NCBI GenBank assembly: GCA_035357435.1
Contig: DAOPNM010000002.1
Location: 1 to 32,000, forward strand
Source: an archaeon
Lineage (GTDB): Archaea > Iainarchaeota > Iainarchaeia > Iainarchaeales > CSSED10-239
Length of the DNA stretch: 32,000 nucleotides
Reading direction: 5' to 3'
Numbering within the stretch: the stretch's first letter is position 1; every line of letters begins with the position of its first letter. Positions 11,921 through 26,587 of the stretch are shown here, piece after piece. A program made the position numbers and the translations under genes. The notes under the pieces were generated by a model. The model was not told where the DNA came from and searched no databases. It saw nothing but the letters and a program-made list of their open reading frames with translations.

Positions 11921-11921
11921 G

Positions 11922-11993
11922 CGCCCCAGGTGAGATTCGAACTCACGACCTGTCGGTTAACAGCCGACTGCTCCACCGCTGAGCTACCAGGGC
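11922..11993 (-). tRNA. tRNA-Asn (anticodon GTT), no intron, no encoded CCA
   Basis: Hand-folded cloverleaf: GCCCTGG/TA/GCTC-AGCGGTG-GAGC/A/GTCGG-CTGTTAA-CCGAC/AGGTC/GTGAG-TTCGAAT-CTCAC/CTGGGGC/G. The acceptor stem has 7 bp including two G-T wobbles. It forms a GC-rich island in AT-rich surroundings. Confidence 0.9.
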
Positions 11994-13876: not shown

Positions 13877-16117
13877 CTATTTCTTTAATTTTGTTACTTT
13901 CTTTGTAGAAATCTCTTGCTTCTTAATTTTAACTGGTTCTGCCTTTAATGTAATTTTTGGATTTTCTTGAGCTTTAATTTCACGTAGTTCATCAAGATAT
14001 GTTTGCTTCATTTCATTATATGTAAAAGAACTTATTTTCCCTTCCATATATGCTTCATCTAACTCTGCAATTTTTTTATGAATAAATTCTTTTTTATTTT
14101 TTGAATTCCCATGAATTTTAGACAATTGAATAATAAACCCAACTACTACTAAAACCAAAATTATTAAAACTATATAAAATAAAACAGATCTATCTTCTTT
14201 TGCATAAACAGACACATACTGTGTTTGCTGATTTGAATCATTATCTCCTTCTCCAGAAACATTTATATTATCACAATTAATTAAAGAATTATCAGTTATT
14301 CCTGCATCACTCACAATTGTATCTATATCTGCAGATTTATAATAACTTAAAACTTCTGTTTCCACATCATAAATATACTTAGCCATGTTTGTAAGTGTAT
14401 TTGAAACTTTTAACTCTGTTTGCCCATCTATATTATTACCAATATTTGCATAATACTCTGCAGAACTATAAAAATACATGGCATGATCGAAAAACATTTT
14501 AGACCAAACATGCTCATCATTGTTCATTTCAGAAATAGATCTTAATTTATTTTGTAAATCATTATAATTATTAAAAAAAGAATTTTCATCAAAATCAATT
14601 GCTGATTCTTCTTGTTTAGAAACAAGAATTGCATAGGCAGTAGCAGCTTCATATGTTGCAGTAACATACCAACCTTTAGACATATCTAATTTTGCTGCTA
14701 GATATCTCCTTTGAAAATCTTCTTCAGAAACATCTTCTTGAGTAAGTAACACCATCTTATTTTCTATATCTACAAGATATCTTTGAGAAACATCTTTAAA
14801 ATATGTTGATTCTACAAACTTATGTTTTGAATCTGTAATTGCAACATCTAAAAAATCATTTGCTATGTCTACCCAACCAACAGCATAAGAATAATTAATA
14901 ACTTTGTCTAATGGTTCTAATTGTGAAATAGAAAGAGGGTCTTTTAACCTATTTAAATTATTTATAGCCCAAGACAATCTTTCTTTAGCACCTATACACC
15001 ATTCCATTTGATCTAAAGAACATTGTTTTGTTCTCAATTCTGTATCATTAATCATCTTCTCTAAATCATTTAATTTTTTAGAAAATATAACAGATTGAGA
15101 ATCTAAAATAGAAGGATTATCTAAAATCTCTTGTATTGCAGTAATATTTACATTTACTAAAAAACAATAATTTGCAGCAGAATATAAATAATTATTATTT
15201 GAACTTTGTTTTGCAAGATCTAACTCATCTTCTGCATAATCTAAAATTGTTAAAACACCTGGTAAAATTCCACTATTCTTAAGATCTTCTGAAATTCTAT
15301 TTAAATCGTTTTGCATAGCTTTTACTTTTTGTTCTGCATCTGGAATATATTTGTCAACTAAATTACGCATAGGTGTAATAGCTACAGAATATTCTATTTT
15401 TGGTGGAATATATTCCACCTTATTCTCAGGTTTAGAAACATTTATATCAATAGAATTTAAATCTTTAGAAACATAATCAAACATTTCTTCAAGAGTTGAA
15501 ACTTCTACAATTTTCATACCCCATGTTTCATAAGCATAATTTATTAAATCTATTTTTTTTACAGTCCCTTCCTCTGAAATAACTTGCTCTCTATTTCCAA
15601 CAGGAATCATAAACAATTTAATACCCGTTTCTGCTGCTTTTTTAGCTTTATAATAAATACCACCAACATCTCCAACTTTGCCATCTAATGAAACAGTACC
15701 AGTAACACTTACATCTTGTGGAAAATTAATATCCTCAAACATTGTTGCAATCAATAAAGCCATTGCAGCACCAGCCGAAGGACCATCAATAGAATATGCA
15801 GAGGATTCAATATTTATAATAAAATCATATTTACTTTGATCTTCCTTTGCAAGAGACGATGCTACTGCAACAGAATGTTTTACTGATTCTTGAGTATTTG
15901 TTCCAACAAGAGAAGAAATAGAAGGAAGAATCATTCCTTTTCCAGGAATTCTTGCAGGTTCAATTATTATTTCTAGATTTGCTTGTAATGCTGTATTATC
16001 TGAATTAACTGCATAAATTTTCATGTGCCCTTCTGGAATAAGTGCAAAAGTATTTGGAAGGATTAATAATATTAAAAAAAATACAAATAATTTATTTTTA
16101 TTGCTCATAAAAACCAT
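13877..16117 (-). CDS. Secreted, membrane-anchored S16 (Lon-type) serine protease with a large helical ectodomain and a SHOCT-like C-terminal tail
   Basis: Signal peptide KLFVFFLILLILPNTFA. Lon proteolytic-domain motifs IDGPSAGAAMALLIATM and GTVSLDGKVGDVGGIYYKAKKAAETG. About 450 aa of unassigned sequence follow, then a TM segment (VLFYIVLIILVLVVVGFII), then IAELDEAYMEGKISSFTYNEMKQTYLDEL. Confidence 0.8.
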   Translation of the reverse strand: MVFMSNKNKLFVFFLILLILPNTFALIPEGHMKIYAVNSDNTALQANLEIIIEPARIPGKGMILPSISSLVGTNTQESVKHSVAVASSLAKEDQSKYDFIINIESSAYSIDGPSAGAAMALLIATMFEDINFPQDVSVTGTVSLDGKVGDVGGIYYKAKKAAETGIKLFMIPVGNREQVISEEGTVKKIDLINYAYETWGMKIVEVSTLEEMFDYVSKDLNSIDINVSKPENKVEYIPPKIEYSVAITPMRNLVDKYIPDAEQKVKAMQNDLNRISEDLKNSGILPGVLTILDYAEDELDLAKQSSNNNYLYSAANYCFLVNVNITAIQEILDNPSILDSQSVIFSKKLNDLEKMINDTELRTKQCSLDQMEWCIGAKERLSWAINNLNRLKDPLSISQLEPLDKVINYSYAVGWVDIANDFLDVAITDSKHKFVESTYFKDVSQRYLVDIENKMVLLTQEDVSEEDFQRRYLAAKLDMSKGWYVTATYEAATAYAILVSKQEESAIDFDENSFFNNYNDLQNKLRSISEMNNDEHVWSKMFFDHAMYFYSSAEYYANIGNNIDGQTELKVSNTLTNMAKYIYDVETEVLSYYKSADIDTIVSDAGITDNSLINCDNINVSGEGDNDSNQQTQYVSVYAKEDRSVLFYIVLIILVLVVVGFIIQLSKIHGNSKNKKEFIHKKIAELDEAYMEGKISSFTYNEMKQTYLDELREIKAQENPKITLKAEPVKIKKQEISTKKVTKLKK

Positions 16118-16190: not shown

Positions 16191-16679
16191 CTATTTTTTC
16201 TTAAATTTATTTCCAAAAAGAACATCAAACTTCTTAGTAGTTACGAGAATGTGTTTTTTTCCAGATTTTTGAACACTAATTAAATCTAAATCTTTCAAAA
16301 TAGCTAAATGATCATATGGCCTTTTTTCAATAATTTTAGATTGTGGTACTGGTGCATTTAATGCAATATATGCTAATGTTTTTAATTGACCTTTTGAAAG
16401 AGTTGTGCCTGTTGCAAAAATATTAAATGATTGAAATTCTGGTTTTATTACCATTTCTAATTTATCATTCTCAAAAATAATTGAAATTGATGTTTGCTTT
16501 TTATTATATTCTTGAATCAACTCTTGAATACAAACATCAATAACATCTCTATCTAAACCAGGCAAAGCAGAATAAATCTTTTTTACATGCACACTCTTTG
16601 GAGCCATAAAAAGAATTGCTTCTATTCCTTTTTTTATATAATTAGAATCTTTTTCAACCATAATTTCTCTAAAAATCAA
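16191..16679 (-). CDS. scpB: Segregation and condensation protein B (ScpB)
   Basis: GIEAILFMAPKSV...LSKGQLKTLAYIALNAPVPQSKIIEKR...LDLISV...TTKKFDVLFG follows the double winged-helix ScpB pattern. The start overlaps the upstream gene by 4 nt. Confidence 0.85.
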   Translation of the reverse strand: MIFREIMVEKDSNYIKKGIEAILFMAPKSVHVKKIYSALPGLDRDVIDVCIQELIQEYNKKQTSISIIFENDKLEMVIKPEFQSFNIFATGTTLSKGQLKTLAYIALNAPVPQSKIIEKRPYDHLAILKDLDLISVQKSGKKHILVTTKKFDVLFGNKFKKK

Positions 16680-16897
16680 CCATTTACATAATCATTTAAA
16701 TCATCTAAAAAAGGATCTGTAACTTGATTTGTTTGCTGTTCTATATCTGTCCCTGCTTTTACTTCTTTACGGAGATAACTTATAAGAGCTAATGCCAAAA
16801 TAATAACTGCTAACAATAATAACCCTAAAATAACTATTGTTTCTATAGATGCCTGTGACCTATTCTCTTTTAATAAATCAAATAATCTTGTGCTCAT
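16676..16897 (-). CDS. Small class III signal peptide (archaeal type IV pilin-like) protein, paralog 2
   Basis: NRSQASIETIVILGLLLLAVIILALAL is a basic / small residue / Q-x-S-x-E plus hydrophobic-helix signature. It shares this and a VTDP(F/L) motif with the upstream paralog. Confidence 0.6.
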   Translation of the reverse strand: MSTRLFDLLKENRSQASIETIVILGLLLLAVIILALALISYLRKEVKAGTDIEQQTNQVTDPFLDDLNDYVNG

Positions 16898-16933
16898 ATA
16901 TAAATATACACCATAATATTTATTAATTAAAAA

Positions 16934-17149
16934 CTAATTAAAAAAATTATTATCTCCTTGCTGCTGAGTTATGGCCTCTTTTAAAGGGTCTGTTACAACT
17001 GATTGGGTGTTTTCTAAATCACTTGCTTGATGTACAGATTTATTCAAATTTCCTAAAAAAAATATTGCTAAAACAATAACTGCAAGAAGCAGTAAACCTA
17101 AAATAATTATTGTTTCCACAGACATCTGTGCTTTATTATCCAACATCAT
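16934..17149 (-). CDS. Small class III signal peptide (archaeal type IV pilin-like) protein, paralog 1
   Basis: DNKAQMSVETIIILGLLLLAVIVLAIFF carries the K-A-Q-x-S-x-E prepilin-type signature. It starts 1 nt after the scpA stop. Confidence 0.6.
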   Translation of the reverse strand: MMLDNKAQMSVETIIILGLLLLAVIVLAIFFLGNLNKSVHQASDLENTQSVVTDPLKEAITQQQGDNNFFN

Positions 17150-17150
17150 A

Positions 17151-17816
17151 TTATAAAACCTTTATATAAATATCTGAAAAAAAATCATCTTGCCAAATAT
17201 TTATTTTATTATGCTGATTTAAAAACAATAATGGCACAAATAAAAAATCAATCATTTTCTGTGGATCATCAACTGTTTTTCTTAACTCTGAAAAACAAGT
17301 ACATTTCTCTGAATCTATGTGTGAATAAATAATTGAAAACAAATTATCTATTCTTGTATTAATATCTTCAATAGGTCTAGGAATAAAAAACTCTGTATCT
17401 TTATTTTCTTTAATTTGTCTAGAAATATTTGTTTTTGTAGGGGTATTCATTAATTGCTCAACAATGCCAATTAATTCATCTAAACTTACTTGCCCTTCTT
17501 TTATTCTTAATGGACTTTCTAATTCCATAGAATTTTCAAATAAATTCTCTGAAGGAATGGTTAATTCCTTTGTATCATCTACACTTGTTAACTTTAAAGA
17601 ACTTGCTTTTAATTTAAGAAGGATTGTTGCTGCAACAAGTGCATTTGCGGGAACAATTAAATTTTGCAGTTTTAGAGATTTTATTTTATTTATGTAAAGA
17701 TCAACTAACTTAACAAGATCTACATTCCATACATCAAAATCATTTGATTTAACTAAATCATACAACATAATCTTCCAATCTGCATGATCAATAATATCAA
17801 CCAATCTTTCATCCAC
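17151..17816 (-). CDS. scpA: Segregation and condensation protein A (ScpA, kleisin)
   Basis: WNVDLVKLVDLYINKIKSLK...IVPANALVAATILLKLKASSL matches the ScpA N-terminal pattern, with a winged-helix-like C-terminus. scpB lies in the same operon. Confidence 0.8.
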   Translation of the reverse strand: MDERLVDIIDHADWKIMLYDLVKSNDFDVWNVDLVKLVDLYINKIKSLKLQNLIVPANALVAATILLKLKASSLKLTSVDDTKELTIPSENLFENSMELESPLRIKEGQVSLDELIGIVEQLMNTPTKTNISRQIKENKDTEFFIPRPIEDINTRIDNLFSIIYSHIDSEKCTCFSELRKTVDDPQKMIDFLFVPLLFLNQHNKINIWQDDFFSDIYIKVL

Positions 17817-17818
17817 AC

Positions 17819-18502
17819 TTAATCACCCAAAAGTTTTGCCTTAAAAGATTGTGCATCAATATCACAGGCTTTAATTTTTTTACTTTGCCCTTCAATTAAA
17901 AGTTGAGTATCTTTTTCGAAATGGATAATTATGGGCTCACAAATTAATCTAAAACCAATAGTGCCAGTTTTCAAAAGTTCATCATAAATTAAATCTATAT
18001 TTTCTGCAGGAACCTCAATATCTGTTCCTACTTTCTTACCTTGAATTTTAGTTGCAATTGCCTGAAGATCAATATTTCCAACAACACCAAACCTTAAAAT
18101 AAATGTTTGAATATTAAAAGTACCAATTATTTTTTTCAAAAAACCTTTTGAATTTTTTGTGTCAGGAAAAACATATTTTCTATAAGATCTAAATTGCTCA
18201 AAAAAATCATTCCCTGCATCTAAATTTTTATAAATAGAATCCATTTCTTGGGTAATAGAACCAACAAGTGCGGTCATATCTTTAAATAAAACAATAAGCT
18301 TTCTCTGTTTAATTTCTTGTTCTAATGTATCTTCTACAAAAGAGTATGTAGAACTAATATTTTGTATTTCTTTTAAAGATTTATCAATAGTTTCTAAAAT
18401 TTCATTTAATTGCTTATAATATTCAGTAACTTTATTTTTTTTATACAAATACTTATTTAAAACATCCAATTGTTTTTTTAAATTAGTAATCTCATCTGCC
18501 AT
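17819..18502 (-). CDS. Hypothetical protein with an N-terminal coiled-coil and a C-terminal beta-rich domain; first gene of the scpA operon
   Basis: The ATG at 18502 is preceded by AGGTGGA (the track start at 18511 is a GTG). Heptad-like N-terminal half: EITNLKKQLDVLNKYLYKK...LNEILETIDKSLKEIQ. I see no Walker motifs or any known family. Its stop is 2 nt before scpA. Confidence 0.6.
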   Translation of the reverse strand: MADEITNLKKQLDVLNKYLYKKNKVTEYYKQLNEILETIDKSLKEIQNISSTYSFVEDTLEQEIKQRKLIVLFKDMTALVGSITQEMDSIYKNLDAGNDFFEQFRSYRKYVFPDTKNSKGFLKKIIGTFNIQTFILRFGVVGNIDLQAIATKIQGKKVGTDIEVPAENIDLIYDELLKTGTIGFRLICEPIIIHFEKDTQLLIEGQSKKIKACDIDAQSFKAKLLGD

Positions 18503-18711
18503 AATATCCACCTATTTGTTATTAAAAAAACGTCTACTCTACAAACAAATATAAGAGAAATATATTAATAAAGGTATTGTTTTTGTAATAAATAATTACA
18601 AATATAGTATATTACAATAAAAGAATTGCAAAATAAATTATGAATTAATATTATTAAAAGGCAGAACAAAAAAAGTGTCCAAGAAATAATGCGTTTTTAC
18701 AAAAAAAATAA

Positions 18712-21511: not shown

Positions 21512-21627
21512 TGTTAGCGACCATAGAGACAAGGAAACACCTGGTCCCATTTCGAACCCAGAAGTTAAGCTTGCCTTCGGTTTTGTATGCTCTTAGAAAT
21601 CTAGGTGCAACAAAGTAGTTGCTAACA
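21512..21627 (+). rRNA. rrf: 5S ribosomal RNA (stand-alone, not linked to 16S/23S in this window)
   Basis: GCGACCATAGAGACAAGGAAACACCTGGTCCCATTTCGAACCCAGAAGTTAAGC matches the universal 5S core. A 10-bp terminal helix pairs 21512-21521 with 21618-21627, including one G-T pair. The ends are uncertain by a few nt. Confidence 0.85.
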
Positions 21628-21826: not shown

Positions 21827-23773
21827 ATGAGTGACACAGAACAAAAAGAAAATGAGCAAGAAAAATCATTTTTTACAAAAAATAAAATTGCAATTATTTT
21901 AATTTTAATATTTATCCTTGCATTTGGTATAAGAGGGCACCTATTAAAATACCCATACATGTTTGAATTTGATCCATATTGGCACCTTAGAGCAACAGGA
22001 TATGTAATCCAAGGAGATCTTCCAGCAAATGACCCACTTGGTTTTTATGGACAAGGAGGGACATCATATGCAGGACAACCTAAATTTTTATGGTATTTTA
22101 CTGCATTTTTATATTCTGTATTTACATTAGGTGGTGCCTACAACAAATTAATATTAATAGAATTTGGAAGATGGTTGCCTGCAATATTTGGTGCACTAAT
22201 CTGTGTTGGCATCTATTTTTTAGGAAAAGAAATGTACAATAAAAAAACAGGAATTGTAATGGCAATAATTGCTGCAACAATACCTGCATTTGTATATAGA
22301 ACAATGGCTGGCTTTTTTGAAGAAGATTCATTAGGTTTCCTATGGATGGTTATTGGATTTATATTTTTTGTAAAAGCACTAAAAGAAATTAACTCTACAA
22401 AAAAGAATATTATTTACTCAATAATAGCTGCATTTTTCTTTATTCTCATGGCAATGACATGGCAAATGTTTTTATTAATTCCATTGGTATTAATCGCATA
22501 TTTTGTACTTAATCTTATATATATGGGGATAAAACACGATACCAAACAACATTTTAGGCATTTTATAAAAACATTTTTAATAATATTTTTATTATTTACT
22601 GTAATAACAACACTTATTCAAGGGACTGGTTGGATTAAAAATACAACATCATATGTAACAAACTATTTACCAATAAATAAAGAAAATATTGCAAGACTTG
22701 AAAAAACTGCAGTATCAGAAACAGACATACTTGGAGCAACAGTTGGTGAAGAAAATACAGGAAAACAATTCTTTTTACACAAATATAACTTCTTATTGTG
22801 GGTTCCATTTGTAGTACTACCATTAATATTTTTCTATCTCATATTTTCAAAGAAAAAAGATTATTTTGCATTAATTATCTTTTCTTGGTTAGCAATTACT
22901 ACATTTATGGCATGGTCTAAACTTAAATTTACTTACACTTTAGGTATTCCAATTGCATTAGGTGTTGGATATTTATTTTATATATGTTATGAATGGGCAA
23001 AAAAAAGCTCAATAACTATAAAAAGAACAACTACAATATTTTTTATATTCCTAATATTAACCTCAATTGCAGCAGGATCTCACTTTGTTACAACAAACAA
23101 ACCCCCAATAGATGAAGAAATAGATTGGCAAAACACATTATTTTGGATAGATGCAAATACTCCAACAGATGCAAAAATATTTAATTGGTGGGATTATGGA
23201 CACTGGATTACATTTTTTACAGACAGAAAAGCAAGTACGGATAATACCAATTCACATATGGAAGGCGATTCAGACTATGCAATGTTCATTATAACAAACG
23301 ATATGAACACAAACAAAGAAATTTTAAAAAAATATGACACAGACTATTTAATTGCAGATTCTGGTTATTTCACTAGATACAACTCTTTTGCAGCATATGC
23401 CTATGTTACAACAAACTTTTCTGATCCAAAAGTAAGTAAATATATGGGTGTGGTACTTTCATGTACGCCAACAGTAACAGAAAATACAAATCAATTAAAT
23501 TATAATTGTGGGGGAAACATTTTTACAAAAAATGAATTTTTAAAAATCCCTACAACATGGCAATCTCAACCATCTCAAATATTACAAGGAACACCTGTTT
23601 TTGTGTATAGATCTTCAAACAACAATGAATTATATATATTTAATGCAGCAGTAAACAACTCTACATTTGCTAAACTTTGGTTTAATGATCCAAGTGCACA
23701 AGATATTGGGGAATTGGCATATTCTAGTGGAAATGTAAGAGTATATAAAATAAATAAATCAAACTTAGATTAG
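21827..23773 (+). CDS. aglB: Oligosaccharyltransferase AglB (STT3 homolog)
   Basis: Multi-pass N-terminal domain with an acidic first loop (FEFDPYWHLR). The diagnostic WWDYGHW motif is present, followed by a soluble C-terminal domain. Confidence 0.9.
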   Translation: MSDTEQKENEQEKSFFTKNKIAIILILIFILAFGIRGHLLKYPYMFEFDPYWHLRATGYVIQGDLPANDPLGFYGQGGTSYAGQPKFLWYFTAFLYSVFTLGGAYNKLILIEFGRWLPAIFGALICVGIYFLGKEMYNKKTGIVMAIIAATIPAFVYRTMAGFFEEDSLGFLWMVIGFIFFVKALKEINSTKKNIIYSIIAAFFFILMAMTWQMFLLIPLVLIAYFVLNLIYMGIKHDTKQHFRHFIKTFLIIFLLFTVITTLIQGTGWIKNTTSYVTNYLPINKENIARLEKTAVSETDILGATVGEENTGKQFFLHKYNFLLWVPFVVLPLIFFYLIFSKKKDYFALIIFSWLAITTFMAWSKLKFTYTLGIPIALGVGYLFYICYEWAKKSSITIKRTTTIFFIFLILTSIAAGSHFVTTNKPPIDEEIDWQNTLFWIDANTPTDAKIFNWWDYGHWITFFTDRKASTDNTNSHMEGDSDYAMFIITNDMNTNKEILKKYDTDYLIADSGYFTRYNSFAAYAYVTTNFSDPKVSKYMGVVLSCTPTVTENTNQLNYNCGGNIFTKNEFLKIPTTWQSQPSQILQGTPVFVYRSSNNNELYIFNAAVNNSTFAKLWFNDPSAQDIGELAYSSGNVRVYKINKSNLD

Positions 23774-23783
23774 AAGAAAAACT

Positions 23784-24764
23784 ATGATAAACACAATATT
23801 ATTATATCTAATTTCTATAATTTTTGCAACATTTATATGCATATTAATTACACCTAACTTTATATCTTTAATGAAACAAAGAGGATTTGTTGGGAAAGAT
23901 ATGAATAAACTGCACAAACCACTTGTTGCAGAACTAGGGGGTATTCCTGTATTTGTTTCGTTTGTATTAAGTTCCTTTTTTTGTATACTTTTTTCATTAA
24001 ATATAATCGATTATAGTTTATTTCTTTTACTTATACTAATGATGACAATAATATTTATTATTGGAATTCTTGATGATGCATTAGGGTGGAAAAAAGGAAT
24101 TAATCAATGGCAACATTTTATTTTGCCTTTACTTTTCTCTATACCTGTTATTATTTATGCAATTAGTCAAAATTTCAATTCAATATACATTCCATTTTTA
24201 GGAACATTAAATGTTGGCTATATATATGCAATTATATTAGTGCCAATAGCAATCACAGCAACAACAAATGCATTTAATCTATTAGCAGGATTTAATGGTA
24301 TGGAAGCAGGAATGTCTATAATTATTTTTATAACTATATCTATATTTGCTTTATTTAAAGGAAACATAACATTATTGCTTATATTAGGAGCGTGGATTGG
24401 TGCACTTATTGGAATTTATAAATACAACAAATATCCTGCAAAAATATTTTTAGGAGATGGTGTAACATTAGTTAGTGGTGTATTAATTGGGATGTCTGCA
24501 ATTGTTTTAAAATTAGAATGGCTCATTGCATTTATTTATATACTTTACATAATTGAATTCATAATAAAAGCATCACACAACTTCAAACCAGAATGCTTTG
24601 GAGTTCCTCAAAAAGATGGAACATTGGCCCCAAAACCAACAGGAGGGTCATTAACACATATAGTTATGAAAAAAGGCAGATTTACAGAAAAACAAGTAGT
24701 ACATATATTTTATATATTACAAACAATAATTTGTGGGATTGCTCTTATATTCTTCTTTTTTTAA
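23784..24764 (+). CDS. aglH: Dolichyl-phosphate HexNAc-1-phosphate transferase (MraY/WecA/GPT family, AglH-like)
   Basis: Multi-pass membrane protein with ILDDALG and NAFNLLAGFNGMEAG motifs. It starts 10 nt after aglB. Confidence 0.85.
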   Translation: MINTILLYLISIIFATFICILITPNFISLMKQRGFVGKDMNKLHKPLVAELGGIPVFVSFVLSSFFCILFSLNIIDYSLFLLLILMMTIIFIIGILDDALGWKKGINQWQHFILPLLFSIPVIIYAISQNFNSIYIPFLGTLNVGYIYAIILVPIAITATTNAFNLLAGFNGMEAGMSIIIFITISIFALFKGNITLLLILGAWIGALIGIYKYNKYPAKIFLGDGVTLVSGVLIGMSAIVLKLEWLIAFIYILYIIEFIIKASHNFKPECFGVPQKDGTLAPKPTGGSLTHIVMKKGRFTEKQVVHIFYILQTIICGIALIFFFF

Positions 24765-24840: not shown

Positions 24841-25296
24841 ATGAAAACAAAAATGAAAACAAAGGCACAAGTTTCATTAGAAGGAATCATTGTAATAATT
24901 TTTCTTATAATATTCATTATATTATTTGAAAATTTAGCACAAAACACTGTTCAAACGATAGAAATAAGTAAAATAAAACAACAACAACAAGAAATAAATC
25001 TTTCATTATTGGAATTTATAAAATATCAAGATCAACAAATAACAAGCAACAAATTTAACATACTTGACTGGAACTCTTCATATAATATTCCAAACATAAC
25101 AATACCAAGTAAAAAAATTGATTGTAATGTATCTATATCTCAAAACAAAATTGAAAGCTCTACATTGTATAACGGTGTGCCTATAATTACTACAACGAGC
25201 ACCTTCATATCAAATCAAATTGAATTACCAATTGTTGCATATTGCGGACAAACATTAAACTGTTTTCTAAATGGAAACAAATTAAAATGTGAATAA
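24841..25296 (+). CDS. Class III signal peptide (type IV pilin-like) protein 1
   Basis: KTKAQVSLEGIIVIIFLIIFIILF signature. It has 4 Cys and several N-x-S/T sequons. The first 24 nt are a 12-nt tandem duplication (ATGAAAACAAAA/ATGAAAACAAAG). Confidence 0.65.
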   Translation: MKTKMKTKAQVSLEGIIVIIFLIIFIILFENLAQNTVQTIEISKIKQQQQEINLSLLEFIKYQDQQITSNKFNILDWNSSYNIPNITIPSKKIDCNVSISQNKIESSTLYNGVPIITTTSTFISNQIELPIVAYCGQTLNCFLNGNKLKCE

Positions 25297-25300
25297 AAAA

Positions 25301-25807
25301 ATGGGAAAAGATAAAGGGCAAGTAATGGTTTTAGATATTTTATTTAGTATAACTTTGTTAATATTAATGATATTTCTTTTATCAAAAATAACAGAATTAC
25401 AAATAGACAAAGAAAATACAGAAAAAGAGATTTATAAATTAAACAAAATAGGGAATATAGTATATAACAAACTAACAAATAACCAAGAAATAAATTGTTA
25501 TACACATGACAATAATAATGATATACTTATACCAAACTGTTTCGGAAAAGATTCAATAATTACAAAGCAAGCATTAGGATTAACCTCTGATTACAATTGT
25601 AATTTCTCAATAACTAACTTTACTATTACAAACAACCAGTGTAACCAAACATACAATTTAAGTGATTTAAAGGCATATTATATAGTTGATATAAACGTTA
25701 TTGTAAACAATACAAGAGACCTAAATAAACAAACAGTTATGAACAATATATTAAATAAAACAAACGATTTAAATATAGAAACTGGAACAATAGTGATATG
25801 GAAATGA
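25301..25807 (+). CDS. Class III signal peptide (type IV pilin-like) protein 2
   Basis: MGKDKGQVMVLDILFSITLLILMIFLL signature. I prefer the ATG at 25301 over the track GTG at 25289. It has 4 Cys and at least 6 sequons (NFS, NFT, NQT, NLS, NNT, NKT). Confidence 0.65.
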   Translation: MGKDKGQVMVLDILFSITLLILMIFLLSKITELQIDKENTEKEIYKLNKIGNIVYNKLTNNQEINCYTHDNNNDILIPNCFGKDSIITKQALGLTSDYNCNFSITNFTITNNQCNQTYNLSDLKAYYIVDINVIVNNTRDLNKQTVMNNILNKTNDLNIETGTIVIWK

Positions 25808-26118
25808 AAAACACTATAGTAACAAAAAAAGGTTTTATTATATCAATTACAACAATATTATATGTTGCACTATTCCTTAGCTTCTTATTAATAATAATAA
25901 ATTTAACAGAAAAACCAATATTTATACCTGACCAACATGCATTAGAAACAAACACAATGTATAAATATATTGAAGGAGACACTAACCAAACAGGTTCTGG
26001 AGAATACTGGTGTGTTTTACATGTTGCAGCATATGATGCAAATGAAAGTTTGCAAACACAAAGTCAAATTAATCTAAAAACATATTGTGAGGAATATAAT
26101 GGAAAAAGGATTATTTAA
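25798..26118 (+). CDS. Class III signal peptide-like protein 3
   Basis: TKKGFIISITTILYVALFLSFLLIII signature. An alternative ATG at 25804 forms an ATGA overlap with the upstream stop. It has 2 Cys. Confidence 0.55.
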   Translation: MEMKNTIVTKKGFIISITTILYVALFLSFLLIIINLTEKPIFIPDQHALETNTMYKYIEGDTNQTGSGEYWCVLHVAAYDANESLQTQSQINLKTYCEEYNGKRII

Positions 26119-26587
26119 TTCAATATTTTTATTGATAATGCTTGCATTAATGGCACCAACAATCTCATTATTAAATGTAAATCAAAATATTATAGATACC
26201 TCTAAACAAATAAATGAAATTGCCCTTACTTTAGATTCAGTAATTGCAGATGGAATAAGCGATGCAGTAAAGATAGATAATTGTACTATTAATGATACAA
26301 ACATAACCGCCAAAATAAACACATATATTGCAAACATAGAAAATGAAAGAAAAAAATATTCATCAATAATATGTACATATGAACTAAATGGCTCAACATC
26401 TACAAACAATTATATTGGATACATCAATCTTGCTTGTAATTCACAAAACTCAATAACAAAAATAAATATTAAAAAAAAATTATATTTTAACAAAAAGATA
26501 ACAACAATTCCATCAGGAACATTATGTTATGTAAAAGTTGAAGATAATTTAGATTCAGGATACATACAAGTAGACCTAAACCAATAA
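26099..26587 (+). CDS. Class III signal peptide-like protein 4
   Basis: MEKGLFNSIFLLIMLALMAPTISLL signature. I prefer the ATG at 26099 (the track start at 26087 is a GTG). It overlaps the upstream gene by 20 nt, and has 4 Cys and several sequons. Confidence 0.55.
   Translation: MEKGLFNSIFLLIMLALMAPTISLLNVNQNIIDTSKQINEIALTLDSVIADGISDAVKIDNCTINDTNITAKINTYIANIENERKKYSSIICTYELNGSTSTNNYIGYINLACNSQNSITKINIKKKLYFNKKITTIPSGTLCYVKVEDNLDSGYIQVDLNQ

Follow-up and report, generated by a model that had tools for sequence, protein, structure and literature searches.

The window that we analysed, 32,000 nucleotides from a contig of an uncultured DPANN archaeon of the phylum Iainarchaeota, carries on its minus strand a string of genes that lie nose to tail in the order up230 (17819..18502, 227 aa, unassigned), scpA (17151..17816, 221 aa, GTG start), p71 (16934..17149, 71 aa), p73 (16676..16897, 73 aa), scpB (16191..16661, 156 aa) and a gene for an extracellular Lon-like S16 protease (13877..16117, 746 aa), which is the last gene of the string. 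The scpA start lies 2 nt past the stop codon of up230, with a Shine-Dalgarno-like motif, GGTGAT, within the last up230 codons; p71 begins 1 nt past the scpA stop, and a 36-nt spacer precedes p73. T5 runs follow the stop codons of p71 and p73. An initial annotation, which was made from the sequence alone, had claimed the five ORFs from up230 to scpB, these three spacings, and one tight gene string that holds p71 and p73 together with scpA and scpB; all of this we could confirm. The transcription unit would start in the AT-rich intergenic region of 209 nt upstream of up230 (18503..18711, minus strand), since this is the sole spacer in the string that is long enough for a promoter. Rfam and tRNA scans found no RNA genes in the region.

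ScpA, the kleisin subunit of SMC-ScpAB, matches the Pfam family PF02616 (E = 1.5e-11, 45.1 bits against a curated cut-off of 24.6 bits), and those of its 78 homologs that carry a source name are labelled segregation/condensation protein A. ScpB, taken as the 162-aa ORF 16191-16679, matches PF04079 (E = 2.4e-21, 76.4 bits against a curated cut-off of 27.4 bits). No SMC-sized ORF was found within the 32-kb window. The 4-nt overlap between p73 and scpB that had been described in the initial annotation requires scpB to start at the TTG at 16679, that is, it requires the 162-aa version of the protein. Independent gene calls in six assemblies start scpB at the ATG at 16661, which gives 156 aa and a 14-nt gap after p73, and in the closest strain, L096, ScpB begins at the same MVEKDS with a 65-nt spacer before it. 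ATG 16661 is most likely the start of scpB, and given these gene calls and the L096 start the overlap is probably not real. Another assumption, that of scpA and scpB as normal neighbours, does not hold for this phylum: at nine distant Iainarchaeota loci the two genes are 1.6-3.7 kb apart, with unrelated genes between them, some of which are on the opposite strand, and for the remaining distant loci a range of 5 kb from scpA yielded no scpB.

For the comparisons we distinguish clade 1, the Forterrea-like Iainarchaeota loci with the 227-aa gene up230, and its sister clade, clade 2. The start of up230 is the ATG at 18502, as in the initial annotation; the ORF listing extends it to a GTG at 18511. 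In the protein, a coiled coil at the N-terminus is followed by an alpha/beta domain at the C-terminus. It has no match in Pfam or NCBIfam and nothing beyond coiled-coil noise among PDB sequences. Its AlphaFold2 model has a pLDDT of 69 overall and about 85-90 in the C-terminal domain, and a Foldseek search of the PDB found no similar fold at E <= 0.001, with no TM-score above 0.25. A full HMMER scan returned 44 representative clusters; clade 1 is the only one with up230 upstream of scpA, and distant members of its family are not scp-linked. The protease, which follows scpB in both clades, matches Pfam Lon_C (E = 1.8e-14) as well as the Lon (3.8e-21) and SepM (2.4e-10) families of NCBIfam; a Sec-type signal peptide and a membrane helix at the C-terminus are present, and an AAA domain is missing.

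The two mini-genes are real genes under selection. The same 71-aa and 73-aa gene calls appear in six assemblies from different samples, and because these assemblies agree, we reject an assembly artefact. Furthermore, both genes are kept in the diverged strain L096. Compared with this strain, dN/dS is 0.07 for p71 and 0.23 for p73, next to 0.10 for scpA and 0.07 for scpB; many of the replacements in p73 fall in the leader. Purifying selection thus acts on both mini-genes, the C-terminal tail included. That p71 and p73 are tandem paralogs, as had been proposed, is borne out by their identity of 41-42% and by the fact that they cluster together in the tree of the N-terminal module described below.

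Both proteins have the features of class III signal peptide (type IV pilin-like) proteins, a proposal of the initial annotation that is upheld by the motifs and by the family alignment; the N-termini and the VTDP(L/F) motif that it quoted are present in the sequence. The predicted cleavage motif (the slash marks the cleavage site) is MMLDNK-A/Q in p71 and ENR-S/Q in p73, and K-A/Q or K-G/Q in other members of the family. A serine at position -1, as in p73, is less usual than glycine or alanine. The leaders, MMLDNKA in p71 (predicted cleavage before Q8) and MSTRLFDLLKENRS in p73 (before Q15), are 7-14 aa long, charged and poorly conserved, and end in a small residue (A or S); they are followed by Gln at +1, Glu at +5 and then about 20 hydrophobic residues. 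The predicted mature p71 has 64 aa, with QMSVE, a hydrophobic helix, a break at VTDP and a short second helix, and the predicted mature p73 has 59 aa. In the AlphaFold2 model of p71, helices at 2-51 and 55-70 flank a break at 52-54, and the pLDDT is above 90 across the hydrophobic part. The VTDP(L/F) motif sits at this helix break. It is not a mere acidic tail, as had been suggested, and is the local form of a family-wide motif, [VT][DN]xF[ILV]xxL. Against the Pfam model PF04021 (Class_IIIsignal), which has only 27 positions, p71 scores 16.1 bits (E = 0.011), below the cut-off of 23.7, and p73 gives no match. A Foldseek search with the p71 model had no match either, as expected for a bare helix. 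Within the 32-kb window there is no gene for a prepilin peptidase, a pilus ATPase or a platform protein; the publication on the Forterrea genome speaks of a "secretion-related ATPase" (PMC5905446).

A sequence search with p71 gave two near-identical proteins only, and therefore we traced the relatives by synteny. The N-terminal module of about 55 aa aligns nearly without gaps between p71 and p73, which are the shortest members of the family, and paralogs of 79 to 1118 aa. Q+1, S+3 and E+5 are invariant in all 20 aligned members, with the hydrophobic stretch next to them, and 17 of the 20 match Class_IIIsignal at E <= 0.05 (best E = 2.3e-5). Among PDB sequences the module profile finds, weakly, the archaeal pilin 6w8u and archaellins as its best matches. 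The long paralogs carry Flg_new_2/InlB B-repeat (E = 2e-62), DUF285, PKD, Big_7, CHB_HEX_C_1 and GLUG domains. Since these extracellular, adhesin-type domains come after the membrane helix, they indicate indirectly that the corresponding segment of p71 and p73 is extracellular as well, with an N-in, C-out topology. The longer members are plausibly modular pilins for attachment to a host or to surfaces.

Does the arrangement recur in related genomes? In clade 1, one to three family genes follow scpA at every locus that has enough downstream sequence, and in the sister group of the window the first of them is a mini form of 79-83 aa. In clade 2, family genes are found directly upstream of scpA at 6 of the 11 loci, one of which (L093) also has a mini form; at the other five the pilin genes are absent and scpA-scpB-lon is retained. 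In most relatives the position of the mini-genes is taken by much longer genes, and the window has no long form at all. Within 284 kb of clade 1 and clade 2 sequence, 37 of 38 ORFs with the strict motif are at the scp locus, and 505 kb of distant loci contain none; the family is, in the loci compared, specific to Forterrea-like Iainarchaeota. The scpA-scpB junction holds unrelated cargo, too, for example two unassigned genes (L019), an antitoxin-like cassette (L012) or, in distant lineages, metabolic genes; a UPF0175 antitoxin-like protein is the sole Pfam match among the accessory ORFs of the relatives.

The tree of the pilin module broadly mirrors the ScpA tree, and paralogs from one genome mostly group together. 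The agreement of the two trees fits one old association of scpA with pilin genes that has been inherited vertically, and for the same reason we reject repeated targeted insertion beside scpA. Of the three options in the initial annotation, a simple operon insertion fits best, but not as a recent event in this genome: the insertion is old, and a family-level clade has inherited it. The link of the pilin genes with scpA has outlived a local rearrangement and about 50% divergence of ScpA, and by gene-neighbourhood logic such survival is a hint of a functional tie.

Taken together, we consider it likely that p71 and p73 belong, as minimal representatives, to the Epd/EppA-substrate kind of type IV pilin-like proteins, and that what links them to scpAB is a common transcription and a gene order that was inherited, without a physical interaction or a functional tie. 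The proteins would be synthesised with a short basic leader, inserted into the membrane by the hydrophobic helix of about 20 residues and cut by a prepilin (class III signal) peptidase at K-A/Q or R-S/Q, and the mature helix-break-helix subunit of 59-64 aa would be polymerised into a type IV pilus-like surface filament or would prime it. As for the locus, the family would have been beside scpA since before the split of the two clades, would have grown and shrunk by tandem duplication, and would have come to lie between scpA and scpB in the clade of the window. Here p71 and p73, which have no upstream spacer of their own, may be read from one promoter together with scpA and scpB.

The closest known counterparts are the Epd pilins of Methanococcus maripaludis, which have leaders of 5-13 aa, Gln+1 and Glu+5, include proteins of 67-76 aa (54-63 aa when mature), and whose major pilin MMP1685, of 74 aa, has its gene apart from those for assembly (PMC3875500). 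p71 and p73 resemble them in the short leader that ends in a small residue, Gln+1, Glu+5 and the hydrophobic helix, in size, in the distance of their genes from the assembly machinery and in an N-glycosylation sequon after the helix (NKS in p71) (PMC3875500). It is typical for pilin genes to stand alone or in tandem outside pilus operons, and the products of such genes are predicted to be major pilins (PMC4858521); an Epd-type system 1 has been reported in DPANN (bioRxiv 10.64898/2026.04.22.720090). On the other hand, past the signal and helix region p71 and p73, which are predicted pilins, have no detectable sequence similarity to the Epd pilins; they have the family-specific [VT][DN]xF/VTDP motif, which is not described for these; p73 has Ser and not Gly at -1; and the genes lie inside an scpA-scpB string. 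The long paralogs of the relatives, with the pilin module fused to adhesin-type domains, are similar to modular type IV pilins such as PilB of Streptococcus sanguinis (PMC8179133), with which they have in common the principle of a filament subunit that bears a binding module. PilB is bacterial and has other modules, whereas the window holds the bare module only and the paralogs are known here from sequence. As in canonical SMC-ScpAB operons, ordinary Pfam-family ScpA and ScpB are encoded close together and in the same orientation. Unlike there, pilin genes are interposed, the window has no smc gene, and often the two scp genes are not neighbours in this phylum anyway.

The kind of protein is thus known, and its gene context within the scpAB string is unreported; our literature search found no paper that links ScpA or ScpB with pilins. 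The surface biology of DPANN archaea is poorly known, and attachment to a host is central to it. What the locus contributes here is a family of pilins, both minimal and modular, that is specific to the lineage. It is also a clear case of genes for extracellular proteins that have long been embedded in a chromosome-maintenance gene string, and calls for caution when function is predicted from gene neighbourhoods in streamlined genomes. A regulatory linkage would suggest that surface appendages are connected with the cell cycle; at present the locus is a well-documented curiosity rather than a new mechanism.

Such a regulatory coupling, in which the production of filaments or adhesins is tied to the cell-cycle-dependent expression of segregation genes, for instance in order to prepare daughter cells for attachment in an archaeon that depends on a host, seems to us rather unlikely. 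It would agree with the retention of the linkage in both clades despite the changed position relative to scpA, and with an independent metagenome scan in which all 7 family members with usable context were scp-linked, although the scan is biased because its pattern was derived from scp-linked proteins. In several relatives scpB begins only 9-25 nt past the last pilin gene, so that ScpB is probably expressed there from transcripts that run through the pilin genes, and a TTTATATA-like box is conserved upstream of the first pilin gene, which suggests that pilins, scpB and protease are one unit in those relatives. The protease, whose gene ends the string, is a surface protein, too. However, five of the clade 2 loci manage without the pilin genes and keep scpA-scpB-lon, unrelated cargo is found at the same junction, and a single ancestral event with vertical inheritance accounts for the pattern without selection. 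We hold it to be more doubtful still that in Forterrea-like Iainarchaeota the pilin/adhesin family, ScpA/ScpB and the Lon-like protease form a conserved co-regulated module that couples the production of attachment filaments to chromosome segregation or to the division cycle; in most relatives the pilin promoter would then drive scpB.

The initial annotation had also proposed a chromosome-to-membrane tether or a division or segregation accessory. In such a reading the mini-proteins would be anchored in the membrane, bind ScpA or ScpB and attach the SMC complex or the chromosome to the membrane during segregation. The tight spacing of p71 and scpA would fit this, as would the conserved partner gene up230 just upstream of scpA in the same clade. 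The homologous module of the long paralogs, however, precedes extracellular adhesin domains, which places the C-terminal tail outside, and the sole cytoplasmic part is the variable leader, which is predicted to be cut off. The mature proteins would have no part that faces the cytoplasm, and this makes a tether very unlikely, the least probable of all the readings. Moreover, family genes that range from 71 to 1118 aa and number from zero to three per locus do not look like a fixed subunit of a conserved complex. Only slightly better are the prospects for the idea that p71 and p73 are what is left of longer adhesin pilins after these lost their C-terminal domains, and are heading for loss, which we judge highly improbable. 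The much longer genes at the same position in most relatives, of which the window has none, speak for it. Against it stand the purifying selection on both genes up to their C-terminal tails, the mini forms that are conserved in first position in the sister group and that also occur in clade 2, and the 36-nt and 14-nt spacers, which leave no room for leftover coding sequence; besides, mature pilins of 62 aa are functional in M. maripaludis (PMC3875500).

On the minus strand of the window, scpA (17151-17816) and scpB (16191-16679 from a TTG start, probably 16191-16661), both above their Pfam thresholds, are separated by two tandem small genes, p71 (16934-17149) and p73 (16676-16897), which code for pilin-like proteins of 71 and 73 amino acids. 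A gene for a 227-aa protein (17819-18502) precedes scpA, and a gene for a 746-aa Lon-like protein (13877-16117) follows scpB. The gaps of 2, 1 and 36 nt between the first four genes, as listed in the initial annotation, were confirmed. The 4-nt overlap of p73 and scpB listed there requires the TTG start; a gap of 14 nt is more likely, since gene callers in six independent assemblies start scpB at ATG 16661 (156 aa) and, in the closest strain (locus L096), ScpB has the same first residues and its gene lies behind a spacer of 65 nt. A GGTGAT read 5 nt upstream of the scpA GTG is compatible with translational coupling.

The G+C content of the window is about 25%, and its housekeeping genes are archaeal (TBP, L21e, an Rpb4-like protein, DUF655, KsgA, AglB, ABCE1, PCNA, aIF2-gamma and aIF5B). 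The closest named relatives of its ScpA are from Iainarchaeota (Diapherotrites, DPANN), with 54% identity to ScpA of Candidatus Forterrea multitransposorum. Two RNA genes, a solitary 5S rRNA adjoining the TBP gene (21513-21627, plus strand) and a tRNA-Asn(GTT) (11921-11993, minus strand), were the only RNA families above threshold in the window.

Both small proteins begin with a basic leader, a small residue, the motif Q-x-S-x-E and about 20 hydrophobic residues. Related loci yielded 18 more proteins that share the motif, and their first ~55 mature residues align nearly gap-free with those of p71 and p73. The VTDP(L/F) motif proposed previously does occur in p71 and p73, but is the local form of a second, family-wide motif, [VT][DN]xF[ILV]xxL. 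The Pfam family Class_IIIsignal matches 17 of the 20 scanned family members (best E=2.3e-5); p71 alone reaches 16.1 bits against a threshold of 23.7. A profile of the module finds among PDB sequences, as its best albeit weak matches, the archaeal pilin 6w8u and archaellins. In the AlphaFold2 model p71 has two helices, 2-51 and 55-70, with a break at T-D-P between them.

The comparison of loci took in 80 from Iainarchaeota, retrieved with a profile of ScpA homologs; exact-protein look-ups and a metagenome scan (motif KKAQVS[IL]E) added others. In a neighbour-joining tree of ScpA the close relatives fall into two clades. In clade 1, which includes the window and the Forterrea group, the 227-aa gene lies upstream of scpA, and one to three family genes (71-932 aa) follow scpA in all loci with enough downstream sequence, with scpB farther downstream in each case where the contig extends so far; the arrangement thus recurs in related genomes. 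The window clusters with the loci L012, L013, L097 and L099, whose first gene downstream of scpA codes for a mini form (79-83 aa). The order in clade 2 is a KaiC-like gene on the opposite strand, zero to two family genes (79-1118 aa), scpA, scpB and the Lon-like gene, and 5 of the 11 loci have no pilin gene. Within 284 kb from both clades, 37 of 38 ORFs with the strict motif are found at the scp locus; there were none in 505 kb from more distant Iainarchaeota. At nine distant loci, 1.6-3.7 kb between scpA and scpB are filled by unrelated genes (e.g. NifS/IscU-like genes or transporters), some on the other strand, and at the remaining ones scpB was not detected within 5 kb of scpA.

Since the tree of the pilin module broadly matches that of ScpA and paralogs from the same genome mostly group together (p71 and p73 form a pair), the data fit a single ancestral association of the family with the scp locus. 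Vertical transmission with local duplication or gene conversion, a change of side with respect to scpA and, in part of clade 2, loss of the genes would explain the remainder. Given the broad agreement of the trees, repeated targeted insertion is not needed.

Most clade-1 relatives have, before the first pilin gene, a spacer of 53-134 nt that contains a T-run as well as a TTTATATA-like box. In the spacer after scpA of L007 (5664-5778), L010, L014, L017 and L088, a conserved (A)CATTTATATA/TTTATAAA box resembling an archaeal TATA box is found 25-70 nt ahead of the first pilin gene. In the Forterrea group and L014 only 9-25 nt separate the last pilin gene from scpB, and pilin genes, scpB and protease gene probably form one unit. 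The box-bearing spacer is missing from the window; because only 1 nt follows scpA there, the pilin genes are most likely read from a promoter that precedes the 227-aa gene. Each of p71, p73 and scpB has a T5-T6 run after its stop codon; as such runs are frequent in DNA this rich in A+T, they prove nothing.

The 227-aa protein, whose gene is tightly coupled to that of ScpA, combines a coiled coil with an alpha/beta part and has no match in Pfam. Its AlphaFold2 model is of moderate quality with a well predicted C-terminal domain, and matched no PDB fold. Its family comprises 44 representative clusters and is linked to scpA in clade 1 only; distant members lack scp linkage. A Lon_C/S16 protease domain (SepM-like match), a Sec-type signal peptide and a C-terminal membrane helix characterise the 746-aa protein, an extracellular Lon-like protease that lacks an AAA ATPase domain; its gene follows scpB in both clades of relatives. 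Between the pilin region and scpB, L012 carries a 175-aa ORF and a UPF0175/DUF6290 antitoxin-like ORF (L012:3461-4350), so the junction tolerates foreign cargo; in another locus, L019, the cargo is two unknown genes. A family of helical proteins of ~190 aa (L012:2829-3428, L097:7126-7704, L099:7962-8546; 29-68% identity) follows the pilin gene(s) in the sister group of the window; the window itself lacks it. It precedes scpB in L012 and L099; in L097 scpB was not called in the 6 kb downstream. Directly after scpA, within the spacer preceding the mini-pilin gene, we also see a very basic, conserved 47-aa ORF without a Pfam match (L012:2416-2559, L013:3658-3801, also L097).

What, then, are p71 and p73? 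That they are decay products is very unlikely, since selection acts on both and mini forms are conserved in relatives. In L096, which comes from another sample, gene order is the same and the orthologs are ~90% identical, with Nei-Gojobori dN/dS values of 0.07 (p71) and 0.23 (p73, where the leader holds many of the replacements), compared to 0.10 for the 3' end of scpA and 0.07 for scpB. Judging from these substitutions, both are genuine genes. A physical tether between chromosome and membrane, as suggested in the initial annotation, is contradicted by topology and highly improbable. In long members the module is followed by InlB B-repeat/Flg_new_2 (E=2e-62), DUF285, PKD, Big_7, CHB_HEX_C_1, Fn3_assoc and GLUG domains. 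Domains of this sort are typical modules of extracellular adhesins, and therefore the tail after the helix faces outward.

We consider it probable that p71 and p73 belong, as minimal pilins, to a lineage-specific pilin/adhesin family, and that their position between scpA and scpB reflects inherited gene order and shared transcription. It is unlikely that surface filaments and segregation genes are tied by regulation; the specific version of this idea, in which the pilin/adhesin family, ScpA/ScpB and the Lon-like protease are one co-regulated module, is somewhat less likely again. A literature search found no report connecting ScpA/ScpB genes to pilin genes: the kind of protein is already known, its scpA-scpB context is unreported. 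A close precedent is Methanococcus maripaludis (M. maripaludis), whose pilins have leaders of 5-13 aa, Gln+1 and Glu+5, whose pilin-like proteins are in some cases 67-76 aa long, and whose 74-aa major pilin, MMP1685, is encoded apart from the assembly genes (PMC3875500). Pilin genes that stand alone or in tandem are typical of archaea and are predicted to code for major pilins (PMC4858521), and the Epd-type system 1 has been reported from DPANN (bioRxiv 10.64898/2026.04.22.720090).

No peptidase, ATPase or platform genes were found within the 32-kb window. Directly downstream of aglB (21827-23773) and a GT4 glycosyltransferase gene (23784-24764) there are four consecutive pilin-like ORFs of 151, 172, 106 and 166 aa (24841-26587, plus strand), without Pfam matches and with the N-termini KA|QVSLE, KG|QVMVLD, KG|FIIS and KG|LFNS; possibly they are a minor-pilin set of the same filament. 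A reference for pilus loci of the DPANN type could be the unrelated metagenome contig L095 (1-8600), where a complete type IV filament-like locus comprises genes for an ATPase and for a 368-aa polytopic protein, perhaps the peptidase, along with two platform-like genes and seven small class III pilin genes.
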